From an uncultured cyanobacterium (GTDB lineage Bacteria > Cyanobacteriota > Cyanobacteriia > Cyanobacteriales > CAWUOF01): 64,000 bases of DNA. Shown here piece by piece: positions 31,997-37,653 of this stretch. The position numbers were made by a program, and so were the translations under genes. Position 1 is the first letter of the stretch. The number at the start of each line of letters is the position of its first letter. Location of the stretch: contig CAVUSO010000001.1 of NCBI GenBank assembly GCA_963744145.1, positions 3,104,001 to 3,168,000 of the forward strand, read 5' to 3'. A model generated the notes under the pieces. That model had not been told where the DNA came from, made no database searches, and saw nothing but the letters and a program-made list of their open reading frames with translations.

Positions 31997-32025
31997 TTGA
32001 CAAAGTTGTAGTATGTGTGTAATAT
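31997..32025 (+). promoter_or_regulatory. Sigma70-type promoter of the Ro-like operon, with two operator-like repeats
   Basis: TTGACA-17 nt-TAATAT; TGTAGTAT (32007) and TGTAATAT (32018) overlap the spacer and -10. Confidence 0.75.
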
Positions 32026-32047
32026 ATTAGTTATGGAAAGGACACCT

Positions 32048-32065
32048 AGACCTGGACAACTTAAT
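32048..32065 (+). promoter_or_regulatory. boxA-like antitermination motif
   Basis: AGACCTGGACAACTTAAT resembles the cyanobacterial rrn boxA (GAACCTTGAAAAC) and lies just after the predicted TSS. Confidence 0.4.
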
Positions 32066-32114
32066 CAGCAACTAGAAATATAAAATAATAAGTTAAAACT
32101 TGGAGGTGAGGACG

Positions 32115-32315
32115 ATGGTGCATATTCGCTTTGAAGGACATTCCTACGATTTGACAGAAGCGGAACTAGGAATTACAGTCAACATGAACGAAACTACCAT
32201 TAAAGAAAGTCTCGCTCAACATCTTGATGTGAATCGCGATCGCTTATCAAAATACGTTTTGGATCGACGTCCTAGTGGTGATTTAATTATCCGTCCTGAA
32301 GCAGTTTATGGGTAA
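32115..32315 (+). CDS. 66-aa putative ubiquitin-like (beta-grasp) protein ending in Gly
   Basis: GGAGG RBS; [13 protein letters not shown]...[10 protein letters not shown]; ThiF gene in the same operon. Confidence 0.65.
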
Positions 32316-32368
32316 TATAATTATCCTCTATACCCAGAGATAAAGCTTACAGATATTGACCAGATTTT

Positions 32369-32499
32369 TCACTTCGCGCCCTGACAAAAAAAGCTTACAT
32401 ACTAGCCGAATTGGTACAGGCACTTGAATTCTAAATCAAGCGATTGCAGGTTCAAATCCTGCGTATAAGCAAACAGCTTTTTTAACTTGCGTGAAGTGA
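32369..32499 (+). ncRNA. tRNA-like cloverleaf (32393-32471) enclosed by an 11-bp outer stem; candidate Y-like RNA
   Basis: D arm GCC-GAATTGGTACA-GGC; anticodon arm CTTGA-ATTCTAAA-TCAAG; T arm GCAGG-TTCAAAT-CCTGC; bulged acceptor stem; outer TCACTTCGCGC/GCGTGAAGTGA, then T8. Confidence 0.8.
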
Positions 32500-32526
32500 T
32501 TTTTTTTGGGGTAAAGTGTCAATAAT

Positions 32527-32615
32527 GGCAGTTAAGTCGCACCCTCATCGGTAAAGCTAATCTAGCTTGATCACCAACTTGTGCGGAGATCTATCATTTG
32601 TGTGCGAAAACTGCC
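32527..32615 (+). ncRNA. Second end-paired structured RNA upstream of the Ro-like gene
   Basis: GGCAGTT/AACTGCC and TCGCAC/GTGCGA terminal stems; internal AAGCTA-atc-TAGCTT hairpin. Confidence 0.55.
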
Positions 32616-32652
32616 TCCTGAAAACTCCACAATCAAGGGGAGGTAGTCAAAA

Positions 32653-34114: not shown

Positions 34115-34169
34115 CATTATTTTATGATTAGTGCTAGTTATCTCCCTTGGGGGTGCTATAATCATAATT

Positions 34170-34724
34170 ATGGACAATCCTCGGTTAGTAAAAATTAGCA
34201 AATATCTGAGCAAACATCTCCGACATCAACCTGAGCAAATTGGACTGGTCCTAGGAGTAGGTGGTTGGGTTTCTGTCGAAGAACTTCTGAGTGCTTGTGA
34301 AAAACACTCCTTTCCTATTACCCGTTTAGAATTAGATGAAGTAGTTGTAAATAATGATAAAAAACGGTTTTCTTTTGATGCTACTAACACTCAGATTCGC
34401 GCTAACCAAGGTCATAGTATCGAAATTGATTTACAATTAGAGCCAGCTATACCTCCAGCTATATTGTATCATGGTACAAGTGATCAGGTCGTACCATCAA
34501 TTTTAGACCAAGGTATTGGCAAAATGTCGCGCCATCATGTACATTTATCTACAGAAATTTCGATCGCACGAAATGTAGGTGCAAGACACGGTCGTCCGGT
34601 TGTTTTCGCGGTAGATACAGCCAAAATGCACCAAGATGGTTATATATTTTATTGTTCTGACAATGGAGTTTGGTTAGTTGATCACGTACCTGCTGAATAT
34701 TTACAAAAGATTGATCTAATTTAG
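34170..34724 (+). CDS. kptA: RNA 2'-phosphotransferase Tpt1/KptA
   Basis: SKxLSxxLRH, KKRF, IRANQGHS, LYHGT, RHHVHLS, NGVWL. Confidence 0.95.
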   Translation: MDNPRLVKISKYLSKHLRHQPEQIGLVLGVGGWVSVEELLSACEKHSFPITRLELDEVVVNNDKKRFSFDATNTQIRANQGHSIEIDLQLEPAIPPAILYHGTSDQVVPSILDQGIGKMSRHHVHLSTEISIARNVGARHGRPVVFAVDTAKMHQDGYIFYCSDNGVWLVDHVPAEYLQKIDLI

Positions 34725-34767
34725 CAATAAATTTTAAAACTTTTTTCGCAACAAAAAGGATATAATT

Positions 34768-35974
34768 ATGGGTTCAGGATCTTTTTGGAACGATGATTCT
34801 ACCGGACAAAATAATGTCCAAAGTCGAGGTTTACTCGCATCAGGTTGGAGACCATTATCACGACAGATTGATTTATCATTCCTGTTGCATTTAGCTACTA
34901 ACGATACCTGGGAATTAACACAAAAAACTCTAGATTTAGCGAGTGATATTGCAGATGCGATCGGACGTTCGAGATTATACTTGGTGGGCTAACATTTTAA
35001 ATATATTTTCCGAAAATACTCGCTATGAAATAGATGAATTTTGGAATTATATTACTCCCGAACCACCTGCACCTGATGAACAATTTAAAGATGTTTTAAG
35101 TATTGAAACTCCTACTGTGCAAATCGTTAGTCGTGATAGTATTCCGATTGATTATGTTTTGAATCGTCTCCGGGAAATTATTGTCATGAAAGTTCTAGAT
35201 TTATTAGGACGTCCAGAATTAATTACCCAAGACTATCTAGAACGACATTTCTATTATCCCGTCGAACGATTTCTCAATTGGGAAAGAATGGAAGCGATCG
35301 GTACAGTTTACGCTTATTGGTCACAGCATCAAGTTTGGTTGCAAATTAATAGTTCTGGAAGAGGAAGAAGACGTTATACTCTCATCGCTAAGGATATTGC
35401 ACCTTTAGTGAATAAATCAACCTATAATCTAGCAGTCATGTTGAGTGGTTATCAAAGTCGGGTTGGTCAGGTGCAAAGTCAGTTTCCGATTCGGACTTTT
35501 CCTAAAGATATTCAAAATTTTACTGATATTGTTCAACAAGCTATTATTGATCAAAATCAGTTAGCTGTGTTAGTACATGGAGATCCAGGAACAGGAAAAA
35601 CTGCATGGACTCAAGCAGTAGCAAAAGAAATTTTGATGCCCTTAGGATATGTTATTTTTATCTTAGATCATGATGCGGTCGAAAATTTTGTCCCCCAAAA
35701 TTATTTGCAACGGGTTTGTCTGATTATTAATGAAGCAGATAATTTAGCTCAAGATCGATCTACTGAAGTTGCTCAACGTAGTAGTAAAACTGAACATATT
35801 TTGAGTTTGCTAGATGGAACTTTATATCAGAGTGTAGTTGATGAAAATGGGTTACAATCAGAGCAAAGATTAGTAGTATTGATGACTTGTAATACTACAG
35901 AAAGGTTAGATCCAGCAGTTTTACGCAAGGGACGGGTTGATTTGATGTATGAATTTACCGAAAAGTTTATCTAG
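34768..35974 (+). pseudogene. AAA+ ATPase split by a +1 frameshift near 34970
   Basis: ORF 34768-34992 joins ORF 34943-35974 if one base is removed; GDPGTGKT, IINEAD, TCNTTERLDPAVLRKGRVD. Confidence 0.75.
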
Positions 35975-35995
35975 TTAAGATTGTAGGTAAGCATT

Positions 35996-36832
35996 ATGCT
36001 TAAGATTGAGCAGTTACTTCACCAAATTGCTACCCAAGAAAAAGAATTTTGTGCTACCCAATTTCTAGCTCCATCAGTGGTCGGAGGAAAGGTGCGATCG
36101 CGAGTATCAGGTCTGATCTATACTTTTACAATTAAACCCCAGCAATTTACTGGTTGGGGAATATTTCAACCTCTGAATTCTACCGTAGCTGAGTTGGTTA
36201 CTGAAGCAGATTTACCCCAGATTGCTGAATATATGCAATATATGTCACCCATGCGTTTTTGGTTAGCTTATGCTTTACAAAAAAACACTTGGCTCGCATA
36301 TCCAATTAATGAATCTGATGCTCAACAACGTTTTGGTATTACTAAACCAGTTCCGATCCATTTAGTCAGTAATGGTGCAGTTTTTGAACAAATTATTGCC
36401 CGATGGGATGGAGGTAATTGGTGGTTTGAAGATTATGATCGTCGAGCTGATCCTTTTTTATCAGAAAACCTGACAACCGCTTTAAAAGAAATTACTCTAC
36501 CAGCTAAACTTCGGTTTAAAGGAATGACACCAGAAATGAAAATAGTTTATCAGTTGGTAACCCAGCAACAAGCAGAATTTAAAGCCAAAATGGAGTTACA
36601 AACTGATGCAGAAAAACTTGCTCAAGCATTAAAATTAGGTGGAGGAGAATTACAAAAATTTCGCGATCGCGATGATTACTGGGTCGTAGAGTGGACTACT
36701 GGATATGGAGAACATCATACCAGTGCGATCGCTAAAAGTGACCTAACTGTAATCAGTGCAGGAATTTGTCTAAGTGGACTAGATCGAGATTTTGATTTAT
36801 CATCTTTAGTGGGTGTCGTGGAATCTCGATAG
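35996..36832 (+). CDS. Hypothetical protein with C-terminal SAGICLSGxDxDFDL motif (possible E2-like)
   Basis: Co-oriented in the operon; Cys in a GICL context. Confidence 0.7.
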   Translation: MLKIEQLLHQIATQEKEFCATQFLAPSVVGGKVRSRVSGLIYTFTIKPQQFTGWGIFQPLNSTVAELVTEADLPQIAEYMQYMSPMRFWLAYALQKNTWLAYPINESDAQQRFGITKPVPIHLVSNGAVFEQIIARWDGGNWWFEDYDRRADPFLSENLTTALKEITLPAKLRFKGMTPEMKIVYQLVTQQQAEFKAKMELQTDAEKLAQALKLGGGELQKFRDRDDYWVVEWTTGYGEHHTSAIAKSDLTVISAGICLSGLDRDFDLSSLVGVVESR

Positions 36833-36834
36833 CT

Positions 36835-36988
36835 GGTGATCATCCAATACGGTTCAGTTAAGGATATTTTGGGAGATCTGGTGAGAAGAAGGGTGAAGCA
36901 TTCGGATATAATATTATTCGTTTAAGTGATAAATTATCGCCCGAATGCTTCACCCCTACAGTTAACTTAACTATATTGGGTGATCATC
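36835..36988. mobile_element. MITE/REP-like element inserted in the operon
   Basis: Imperfect terminal inverted repeats GGTGATCATCCAATA.../...TATTGGGTGATCATC; internal GGGTGAAGCATTCG/CGAATGCTTCACCC is a compensatory variant of the 16.4 kb repeat. Confidence 0.75.
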
Positions 36989-37017
36989 TGGTTTTGTTCC
37001 CTCAATAATTAAAGTAA

Positions 37018-37653
37018 ATGTCTATATTCTTCCATGAACAACTCTATCGAACTCAACCAGTCATGGTGCAATTAACAAATTTTGCTGTGACTGTTTGTGG
37101 TGCTGGTGCGATCGGAGCTAACCTGACCGAAAGTTTAGCTCGATCGGGTTTAGCAAAATTAAAAGTAATTGATCGCGATCGCATTGAAGAACGTAATTTG
37201 TCAACTCAACCTTATTATCGAGCTGATGTTGGTGCTTGCAAAGCCAAAATATTAGCTCATCATCTTTATCGTGCTTTAGGAGTAAAAATTGAGGGTCAAT
37301 CTCAAGAATTAACTCCTAAAAATGTCAAAGAATTATTAAAAAATAGTGACTTAGTTATTGATTCCTTTGATAATAGTATCGGACGTCAAATAGTTAAAGA
37401 TTATTGTTTAGCAGCAAATCTTCCTTGTTTGCACATCGGATTAGCTAGTGACTATGGGGAAATTATCTGGAACAATTCTTATCGCGTTCCTTCTGGAGCT
37501 AATGATGATATTTGTGATTATCCATTAGCGAGAAATTTAGTCATGCTTACCGTTGCGATCGCAGCTGAAGTAATTATTAAGTTTATTGCTACTGGTAAAC
37601 AAGAGAGTTTTACTATTACCTTAGCAGATTTTGGGATTCAACAGTTTCATTAA
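37018..37653 (+). CDS. ThiF/MoeB/E1-family adenylyltransferase
   Basis: GAGAIG, DRDRIEERNLSTQ, IDSFDN, DDICDY; no CxxC zinc pairs. Confidence 0.9.
   Translation: MSIFFHEQLYRTQPVMVQLTNFAVTVCGAGAIGANLTESLARSGLAKLKVIDRDRIEERNLSTQPYYRADVGACKAKILAHHLYRALGVKIEGQSQELTPKNVKELLKNSDLVIDSFDNSIGRQIVKDYCLAANLPCLHIGLASDYGEIIWNNSYRVPSGANDDICDYPLARNLVMLTVAIAAEVIIKFIATGKQESFTITLADFGIQQFH

Follow-up and report, generated by a model that had tools for sequence, protein, structure and literature searches.

What could join a Ro60-like protein and structured non-coding RNAs to the genes of a ubiquitin-like pathway? The question is raised by a locus at positions 31997..37653 of a 64,000-nucleotide stretch of DNA from an uncultured cyanobacterium (GenBank assembly GCA_963744145.1, contig CAVUSO010000001.1, positions 3,104,001 to 3,168,000 of the forward strand), the whole of which is referred to here as the window. 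An initial annotation had listed in this locus a candidate ubiquitin-like protein (Ubl) ending in Gly, two non-coding RNAs, a Ro-like protein with a von Willebrand A (vWA) domain, the RNA 2'-phosphotransferase Tpt1, an AAA ATPase, a protein with a G-I-C-L-S-G motif (the Cys protein) and an E1-type adenylating enzyme related to ThiF. All eight elements are found, co-oriented on the plus strand, at or within these limits, and each stands at the position listed for it (Table 1).

A scan with the Ro-like protein of the window returned 80 related loci, 79 of them cyanobacterial and one from the Myxococcota, which are referred to here as the cyanobacterial loci. Comparison of these and of further loci from other phyla and from phages identifies the conserved core of the system, which consists of the Ubl candidate, one or more Y-like RNAs, the Ro-like protein, the Cys protein and the E1. 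We propose that this core is a Ro–Y RNA particle coupled to an E1-driven Ubl pathway and linked to stress or conflict, a reading to which we give a probability of about 0.42. The gene content, the homology to Ro, the structure of the RNAs and the synteny across phyla and phages are established parts of this picture.

The Ro-like protein and the Y-like RNAs beside it

By both profile and predicted fold, the vWA protein of the locus is a divergent homologue of the Ro60/TROVE+vWA proteins. Ro60 proteins bind Y RNA on the rim of their ring and take up the ends of misfolded RNA in its central hole. In the AlphaFold2 (AF2) model of the window protein (predicted local distance difference test, pLDDT, 89; predicted template modelling score, pTM, 0.74) a helical TROVE-like ring, at approximately residues 1–290, precedes an alpha/beta vWA domain. 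A profile of 61 diverse family members, searched against the Protein Data Bank (PDB), matches human Ro60 (E 9.6e-18), Xenopus Ro (E 1.9e-13) and Deinococcus Rsr (E 8.8e-8), together with two TROVE-domain entries of phage or bacterial origin (E 1.6e-13, profile positions 24–394 on chain positions 60–431). When the model is used as a Foldseek query, all of the Ro60, Rsr and TROVE entries come on top (printed ranks 1–12, E 2.9e-11 to 1.8e-9, TMq 0.51–0.66 over 458–526 columns), with the Ro60 of Thermus phage phiLo among them, and plain vWA domains appear only from E 1e-5 on. The metal-ion-dependent adhesion site (MIDAS) motif of the vWA domain is intact, D300, S302, S304 and D386 being invariant and T362 at least 90% conserved in the 61 sequences. 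The sole Pfam row of the window protein is VWA_2 (E 0.0049, below cutoff) and a scan against NCBIfam returned no match; the family is nonetheless large, with 957 clusters at 50% identity (E<=0.001). The guess of the initial annotation that this is a Ro-like protein is borne out, the TROVE ring being present together with the vWA domain by profile and by fold.

A 340-nt non-coding gap separates the Ubl open reading frame (ORF) from the 477-aa Ro-like gene, and two structured RNAs lie within it. ARAGORN predicts a tRNA-like element (32396–32470) with a 4-base 'anticodon' in an 8-nt loop, which scores 38.9 bits against the Rfam tRNA model (gathering threshold 29). It forms the inner part of a longer RNA (32362–32505) with a single-sequence fold z of -3.97, whose ends pair (CACUUCGCG...CGUGAAGUG) ahead of a run of eight U. 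From 111 candidate elements of related loci we derived a redundancy-filtered alignment of 59 non-identical copies (A3, folded with RNAalifold), which resolves into six helices: two basal stems, a 5-bp acceptor-like stem, and D, anticodon and T arms. The basal stems are separated by an invariant internal loop, CCCUGAC / AACUUG (5' GCCCUAAC, 3' AACUUG). Standard pairs fill 97.3% of the 2118 cells of the alignment, against 33–52% when the partners are slid by 1–3 columns; compensatory changes are seen in 18 of the 36 pairs (5–7 when slid), and the covariation score is reached by 0 of 500 shuffles. Helices 1 and 2 are 96–97% paired and include nine pairs with compensatory change, and the D, anticodon and T arms all covary. 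A decoding tRNA is ruled out by the 4-base anticodon in its 8-nt loop, by variation of that anticodon and by the burial of the acceptor-like stem, whose 5 bp are enclosed by two further helices. Because the 'anticodon' varies freely among orthologous copies, the first RNA is a tRNA mimic on a conserved two-stem base, and its layout is Y-like; the YrlA-type Y RNAs encoded beside Ro genes have a comparable layout, as outlined in part of the text of PMC4201824.

A covariance model built on A3 (R1) scores the window RNA at 145 bits and gives a second match immediately downstream, at 32525–32597 (15.9 bits, E 0.04), in which both ends of the full model are matched and the basal stems and their loop are kept, with 75 model positions, the whole tRNA part, deleted and a 3-nt loop in their place. 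Folding of 32505–32655 alone is not significant (z = -1.2); we accept the match as real because most of the 80 cyanobacterial loci (about 55, by hand count) have a homologous short module of about 90 nt at the same place, preceding the Ro-like gene by 50–300 nt. As judged by the covariance model, the second RNA represents the Y-like base without its head. The two RNA elements of the initial annotation, a tRNA-like RNA and a second structured RNA, are thus both real, the one as a Y-like RNA and the other as its headless miniature. The statement of that annotation that Ro60 orthologues are encoded beside their Y RNAs also applies here, as the Ro-like gene adjoins covarying Y-like RNAs: the longer RNA is 148 nt upstream of the gene in the window, and modules adjoin the gene in cyanobacterial, other-phylum and viral loci alike.

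At E<=1e-6 the R1 model gives 297 matches in the 80 cyanobacterial loci, all on the plus strand and several per locus. Most are full-length (model 1–142), with sizes of about 90, 140, 160, 204 and 225 nt, and a few are array tRNAs that match on the tRNA part only (model 44–99). The Rfam YrlA model gives weak matches to sister modules in L002 and L043 (33–36 bits, E 2e-4 to 2e-3, gathering threshold 69). The sequence of the internal loop is invariant beyond what pairing requires, which fits a protein-binding site, and by analogy with Y RNAs, whose terminal stem known Ro proteins bind, the basal loop (GCGCCCUGAC / AACUUGCG) may be where the Ro-like protein binds; the Y RNA motifs GGUCCGA and GNCGAA, as given in a portion of PMC4201824, are similar in flavour to GCGCCCUAA of the present base.

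The same base also carries heads that are not tRNA-like. In Calothrix sp. NIES-2100 (L026:9220-9420) a Y-like module of about 225 nt lies upstream of the Cys gene, and its head imitates two elements of 23S rRNA. The head holds UAGUACGAGAGGA, which in the window genome is found solely in the three 23S genes, about 250 nt from their 3' end, the position of the sarcin-ricin loop; the 13-mer TAGTACGAGAGGA likewise matches the three 23S genes of the window genome only, and the 14-mer AGTACGAGAGGAAC has no exact match in that genome. A 56-nt stretch, 60 nt further on, aligns end to end with the L11/GTPase-centre hairpins of the large-subunit rRNA models (51.7 bits bacterial, 48.3 bits archaeal). Both rRNA motifs occur together in seven loci (L026, L027, L035, L048, L055, L062 and L072), neither occurs in the window, and the 12-nt loop motif of the rRNA-like head is present on the plus strand in 34 of the 80 cyanobacterial loci.

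Several further features of the related loci touch on these RNAs. Pfam identifies an L7/L12 paralogue between the tRNA-like RNA and the Ro-like gene in 13 loci (e.g. L026:6340-6732, L062:6079-6471) and an EF-Tu paralogue within the upstream tRNA array in six (e.g. L034:2028-3257); these are protein partners of the rRNA centre that the sarcin-ricin/L11 head mimics. Sub-threshold Rfam tmRNA matches near the Ubl gene (L026:4271-4354, 39.6 vs 47 bits; L002:4400-4444, 28.2 vs 70 bits) are hints of further kinds of mimic head. In 30 Nostoc-type loci (L023–L080) an extra tRNA-like Y module, mostly with a CUA 'anticodon', lies about 115 nt upstream of the Ubl gene, and the window is without a copy. 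Elsewhere in the window genome, two headless modules of about 90 nt (L090:7082-7171 and 8190-8278, minus strand; 40–42 bits) lie on either side of a MazF-family toxin gene and the small partner gene upstream of it, so the basal module is also used outside the Ro locus.

Distribution, cargo and regulation of the gene set

In the cyanobacterial loci, tblastn recovers the Ubl candidate in 70 of 80, the Cys protein in 54 and ThiF in approximately 50; many of the missing genes are accounted for because variable inserts push genes past the 7-kb flank or because contigs end. A single-sequence scan with the Myxococcota Cys protein matched itself only. A second scan, for which the Cys proteins of greatest divergence were aligned, yielded 80 loci, from the Myxococcota, Acidobacteriota, Bacteroidota, Planctomycetota, Chloroflexota, Obscuribacterales/Melainabacteria, Vulcanimicrobiota, Spirochaetota, Abditibacteriota, Selenomonadaceae and Burkholderiales, and from more cyanobacteria. 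Profile searches of their ORFs identify ThiF in 67 of the 80 loci, the Ro-like protein in 57 and the Ubl in 56, with the genes in the same orientation throughout, and full-length RNA modules are present in 45; in some loci (e.g. L105, L110, L114, L169 and L170) the four genes form compact blocks without cargo. In IMG/VR, 20 viral contigs (L173–L192), several of jumbo-phage size, encode the Cys protein, and with it the Ro-like protein (20/20), ThiF (20/20), the Ubl (17/20) and full-length modules (15/20), with tRNA arrays alongside several of them. The check on neighbourhood conservation that the initial annotation had called for thus comes out in its favour: the genes for the Ubl, the Ro-like protein, the Cys protein and ThiF keep their synteny from phylum to phylum and in phages.

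Tpt1 and the AAA ATPase are variable local cargo and not part of the core. Both are securely identified in the window, Tpt1 by PF01885 (E 2.6e-52, 177.8 bits vs cutoff 26) and NF002014 (271 bits vs 239), and the AAA protein by PF00004 (E 2.5e-13, 51 bits vs 21.2), and they are present in 4 and 10, respectively, of the 80 related cyanobacterial loci. The AAA gene that the initial annotation had listed does encode an AAA domain, but its reading frame is broken: an intact 400-aa orthologue (L009:13083-14285) aligns to it by tblastn in two frames, with a switch at about 34969–34973. The first 60 or so residues are encoded in an ORF at 34768–34992 in the other frame, and a 343-aa product from a GTG at 34943 is possible; the one-base frame change may stem from mutation, from an error in the assembly or from programmed frameshifting. 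As Tpt1 and AAA are rare and the AAA gene is broken, the ideas of a vWA–AAA remodelling pair and of an RNA repair system centred on Tpt1, both put forward in the initial annotation, describe local cargo and are set aside for the system as a whole. Other cargo of the cyanobacterial loci includes two proteins without a family, of 241 aa (44 loci) and 153 aa (30 loci), a second vWA protein (10 loci), and Phd/YefM, Uma2, NUDIX and RRM proteins.

The promoter of the window locus is overlapped by two 9-nt direct repeats, TGTAGTATG and TGTAATATA, and positions 32007–32026 (TGTAGTATGTGTGTAATATA), which overlap the -10 box, differ by one mismatch from the operator pattern TGTWNWWNWNNWGTANYNWA. This pattern is known from Anabaena PCC 7120, where a 26-gene tRNA array and all8564, rtcB, dpsA and all4315 are inducible by translation inhibitors, an effect mediated by a pair of 9-nt direct repeats that cover the -10 box (Santamaria-Gomez et al. 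2021, PMC8421152, in the part of the article that describes the regulon). In 17 of 70 loci the 450 nt that precede the Ubl gene contain an operator match with no more than one mismatch, compared with 0.057 matches per 450 nt elsewhere in the same loci. Judging from this motif match, impairment of translation probably induces the operon. The likeness to the Anabaena translational-stress regulon extends beyond the near-copy of the operator over the -10 box. Many related loci lie directly 3' of tRNA arrays of 10–24 genes (e.g. 22 tRNAs in L040, by ARAGORN, and 24 in L078), and their neighbourhoods are enriched in RNA-processing and translation genes. The arrangement differs from that of the Anabaena array in that the tRNA array of the window genome, with ten genes (G000:C1:5725300-5727650; L089:8999-11634, minus strand), is 2.6 Mb from the window locus. 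The main text of PMC8421152 contains no occurrence of ThiF, ubiquitin, von Willebrand, KptA, phosphotransferase, Ro60 or Y RNA.

Two side observations concern these arrays and operators. At the end of the window-genome tRNA array there is a 164-nt Y-like module (55.8 bits), and among its tRNAs a gene of the microbial type for PARG, an ADP-ribose glycohydrolase, which is noteworthy beside Tpt1, whose reaction yields ADP-ribose cyclic phosphate. A further one-mismatch operator match in the window (TGGTAAAAAAAATGTAGTATA, 30751–30771) lies about 130 nt upstream of a gene for a TupA-like ATP-grasp protein (30900–31814).

These data bear on a somewhat unlikely but substantial second explanation, in which the Y-like RNAs would be bait, imitating the RNAs that ribotoxins or translation-directed defences attack, the ring would display or protect them, and the Ubl would mark or inactivate the attacker or report the attack; in phages, this would be a form of counter-defence carried with spare tRNAs. 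It draws on the occurrence of the gene set in the viral contigs (up to 572 kb) with tRNA arrays near, on the patchy spread of the Cys protein in cyanobacteria (47 of 401 sampled genomes, 22 of 156 genera), on cargo slots that hold toxin-antitoxin genes, endonucleases, NUDIX proteins and Tpt1, on the modules flanking the mazEF pair of the window genome, and on heads that mimic tRNA and, in the seven loci with rRNA motifs, also the sarcin-ricin loop and L11/GTPase-centre hairpins. However, PADLOC matched no defence system except for the E1 domain and weak ATPase matches. This explanation also overlaps with the Ro–Ubl coupling that we prefer and could be its biological purpose, such that the two are not exclusive.

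The small protein, the adenylating enzyme and the Cys protein

The small ORF is strikingly constant: all 71 copies (the window and 70 loci), 61 of them distinct, are exactly 66 aa and end in RPEAVYG*, and an alignment of 50 sequences reaching 55% identity has 22 invariant columns. No family was found for it in Pfam (50 members), in NCBIfam (window copy) or in a search of its profile against the PDB, and its matches in the protein atlas are unnamed 66-aa clusters only. Its candidacy as a Ubl follows the C-terminal Gly and the linkage to an E1, the ThiF gene being present in 67 of the 80 other-phylum loci and in all 20 viral loci.

The ThiF protein itself is readily assigned by PF00899 (E 5e-27, 95 bits vs cutoff 28.1), and G28, G30, G33, R68, D115 and C166 are invariant among 43 sequences, the three glycines corresponding to the glycine-rich nucleotide loop. 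Its profile matches, in the PDB, the adenylation domains of Uba1, Uba6, TcdA, MccB, Uba4, Cap2, ThiF and MoeB (E 1.9e-14 to 3e-8). PADLOC models of E1-E2 proteins match it on their E1 part only (residues 9–140, E 1.9e-15), and the known defence Ubl systems (CBASS Cap2/3, Bil and 6A-MBL) are rejected as identities, as PADLOC and NCBIfam match the same residues alone. Neither an E2, a JAB nor a cyclase gene was found among the ORFs of the window locus with Pfam.

The Cys protein is without a family in Pfam (all 46 members), NCBIfam, PADLOC or the PDB. Its AF2 model (pLDDT 92) has an N-terminal helix, two beta-barrels, helices at 153–215, a four-strand sheet at 218–254, the Cys loop and a last helix. 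The second barrel (residues 82–157) superimposes on the OB folds of S17, IF1, eIF5A and the N-domains of proteasomal ATPases (Z 7–7.8, root-mean-square deviation 1.7–2.0 A over about 56 residues), and we call it OB-like only, because Z values of 7–7.8 are common for unrelated models. Among 46 sequences, which extend down to 34% identity, the segment G256-x-C258-L-x-G261-x-D263-x-x-F266-D267-L268 is invariant and H241 is nearly so. Residues 193–277 of the model run through a helix, four strands, the loop with Cys258 and a helix, and this order of helix, four strands and Cys loop, together with the G-I-C-L-S-G motif, may resemble the active-site region of an E2. With the small protein, the ThiF and Cys proteins may constitute a module for Ubl conjugation.

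A doubtful alternative is that the same proteins form a sulfur relay, in which the E1 would adenylate the small protein and give it a thiocarboxylate C-terminus, Cys166 and/or Cys258 would carry a persulfide, and RNA would be thiolated as in TtuB/TtuC and Urm1/Uba4, with the tRNA-like heads, the array tRNAs or rRNA as substrates. Like ThiS-ThiF, MoaD-MoeB, TtuB-TtuC and Urm1-Uba4, some of which serve tRNA thiolation, the locus pairs an E1 of minimal ThiF/MoeB size with a carrier-sized protein of 66 aa with a free C-terminal Gly. The best NCBIfam rows of the E1 are ThiF and MoeB, its PDB matches include Uba4, ThiF and MoeB, the core is without a deconjugating peptidase, and the system is centred on RNA, which the OB-like domains of the Cys protein could hold. 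Against this, assignment as a ThiF/MoeB equivalog is rejected by scores well under the trusted cutoffs (86.5 bits vs 159 for NF006395, 84.8 vs 275 for TIGR02356 and 60.1 vs 449 for MoeB), and the PADLOC models of conjugating E1-E2 proteins fit the protein equally well. Neither a PP-loop ATPase nor a rhodanese domain is encoded in the conserved core, and there are no thiamine or molybdopterin partner genes; the constant linkage is instead to the Ro-like protein and Y-like RNA. The carrier here also ends in a single Gly.

A working model for the locus

In the coupling of a Ro particle to a Ubl pathway that we favour, the divergent Ro60-like ring and at least one Y-like RNA would form a ribonucleoprotein. 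The constant two-stem base of the RNA would be the Ro site, and its exchangeable head would mimic an RNA of translation (a tRNA in the window, and in related loci a YrlA-like RNA or parts of 23S rRNA); the heads would recruit factors that recognise tRNA or rRNA. The E1 would adenylate Gly66 of the small protein, Cys258 of the Cys protein would take over the activated Ubl in thioester linkage, the OB-like domains would dock the Cys protein on the RNA or the particle, and a target in the particle or in the translation machinery would finally receive the Ubl. The operon would travel with tRNA arrays on mobile islands and in giant phages. Within this scheme we infer the binding of RNA by the Ro-like protein, the thioester relay, the target and the inducing signal.

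A more specific version, which we consider unlikely, is RNA-scaffolded Ubl tagging. The heads of interchangeable Y-like RNAs on the ring, in imitation of tRNA, of tmRNA-like elements or of the factor-binding centre of the ribosome, would capture their binders, and the E1 and the OB-fold Cys carrier would tag the captured protein or even the RNA end with the 66-aa Ubl, as a shared answer to attack on translation. The captives may include translation factors, enzymes of damaged RNA, ribotoxins or antibiotic-bound partners.

Several results weigh against the coupling of a Ro particle to a Ubl pathway. On the side of the pathway, the profile of the small protein finds no ThiS, MoaD or ubiquitin structure in the PDB, its sequence ends in one Gly and not in Gly-Gly, and no E2 or UBC protein is among the Foldseek, VIA-align, hidden Markov model (HMM), Pfam or atlas matches of the Cys protein, the fold lists being filled by its OB-like domain, such that the C-terminal domain was hardly probed; the core also offers no peptidase for deconjugation. 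On the side of the particle, Pfam has no TROVE row at E<=0.01 for the window protein, and Rfam YrlA (RF02553) and Y_RNA have no match in 31900–32700 at E<=10; the protein and its RNA therefore lie outside the curated families, and the kinship is remote. As to expression, one-mismatch matches to the operator are not rare by count in the window (6 vs 4.2 expected), and the hairpin after the Ro-like gene and the U-run after the Y RNA could split the operon into separate transcripts.

It is improbable that the basal module is instead a processing or stability signal (for RNase P, RNase Z or RNase III) punctuating a polycistron, with the Ro-like and Ubl/E1 genes as separate neighbours on a mobile island, even though modules lie between most genes of the longer loci, several per locus, and at unrelated sites of the window genome (the tRNA array and the mazEF pair), and tRNA-like elements are natural substrates of RNase P and RNase Z: the four proteins are encoded together and co-oriented in about ten phyla and in phages, including the cargo-free loci, and the sequence of the internal loop is itself invariant. 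Ro proteins are, moreover, known to be encoded beside their Y RNAs, as described in part of PMC4201824.

The features of the window locus are collected in Table 1. The TupA-like ATP-grasp gene upstream and the Hpt gene downstream were considered as members of the system and rejected, being linked to it in 0 of the 80 related loci. A gene for a 1350-aa protein with a C-terminal GGDEF-like region (26521–30573) ends about 1.4 kb upstream of the locus and is seemingly unrelated.

Table 1. Features of the Ro-like/Ubl locus, with positions in the window. MFE, minimum free energy.
Feature	Position	Strand	Basis or remark
Promoter TTGACA-17-TAATAT	31997-32025 (feature to 32026)	+	Top sigma-70 match of 31700-38100, 10/12
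Ubl candidate, 66 aa, C-terminus RPEAVYG	32115-32315	+	ORF; without Pfam/NCBIfam family
Y-like RNA with tRNA-like domain 32396-32470, then U8 run	32362-32505	+	Fold, covariation, covariance model
Miniature Y-like module, short loop replacing tRNA domain	32525-32597	+	Covariance model R1
Hairpin of CUGCCUCC with the GGGGAGG Shine-Dalgarno region of the Ro-like gene	32610-32647	+	MFE and centroid folds, 32505-32655
Divergent Ro60-like protein, 477 aa	32653-34086	+	Profile and predicted fold
10-bp hairpin and T-rich tail after Ro-like gene, possible partial terminator	34091-34114	+	Such sites at chance number in region
Tpt1/KptA RNA 2'-phosphotransferase	34170-34724	+	PF01885, NF002014
AAA ATPase, classic clade, frameshifted	34768-35974 (main ORF 34943-35974)	+	PF00004
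Cys (GICLSG) protein, 278 aa	35996-36832	+	AF2 model; without known family
Minimal ThiF/E1-type adenylating enzyme, 211 aa	37018-37653	+	PF00899

The nearest relatives of the particle are the bacterial Ro60 (Rsr)/YrlA systems of Deinococcus and of the Salmonella rsr-yrlBA-rtcBA operon, which, in the portion of Chen et al. 2014 (PMC4201824) that covers them, share several features with the present loci: a ring-shaped TROVE+vWA protein encoded beside non-coding RNAs, RNAs built of a terminal stem and a tRNA-like domain with several per locus, linkage to RNA-repair genes and translation stress, and the existence of phage-borne versions. The present system differs in that the protein is too divergent for the Pfam TROVE model and the RNA falls below or outside the Rfam YrlA and Y_RNA models, and in that the tRNA-like head keeps the canonical arm order. 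An invariant loop of its own (GCGCCCUAAC / AACUUGCGC) replaces the GNCGAA or GGUCCGA motifs reported for Y RNAs in that part of PMC4201824, and in place of RtcB/RtcA or PNPase the system has the Ubl, the E1 and the Cys protein as its constant partners.

The CBASS Cap2/Cap3, Bil and Bub/6E systems likewise combine a Gly-ended small protein with a ThiF-type E1 and a protein with one invariant Cys. The E1 of the present locus is, in contrast, a 211-aa protein unfused to an E2, no UBC/E2 fold and no JAB or other peptidase was found in the system, and no described family includes the Ubl or the Cys protein. The partner here is an RNA–protein particle, not a nucleotide cyclase or a phage-tail target.

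The initial annotation had left the novelty of the gene combination to a literature check, and full-text literature searches returned no paper on a system uniting a Ubl/E1 with TROVE/Y RNA, nor any description of this combination or of the two partner families, for which Pfam has no model. Ro–Y RNA particles and bacterial Ubl–E1 pathways are each known, and their constant union is new as far as found.

Ro60–Y RNA particles are conserved from bacteria to humans, and in bacteria the only roles known for them are in RNA decay and in the Rtc repair operon. The loci described here represent a distinct and very widespread Ro branch, present in about ten phyla and in giant phages, in which the Ro-like protein always has three partners: an E1, a very small protein ending in Gly, and the Cys protein. 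Should this three-protein module carry out conjugation, it would connect Ro/Y RNA biology to ubiquitin-like chemistry for the first time and would represent a new minimal Ubl pathway; should it carry out thiolation, it would be a new route of RNA modification. The exchangeable heads extend RNA mimicry beyond YrlA, with a mimic of the sarcin-ricin loop and the L11 stalk base encoded beside L7/L12 and EF-Tu paralogues, and the association with inducible tRNA arrays offers a concrete way of studying how cells and phages deal with attack on translation. Should the RNA-scaffolded tagging prove true, bacteria of many phyla and giant phages would share a way of sensing and answering such attack.

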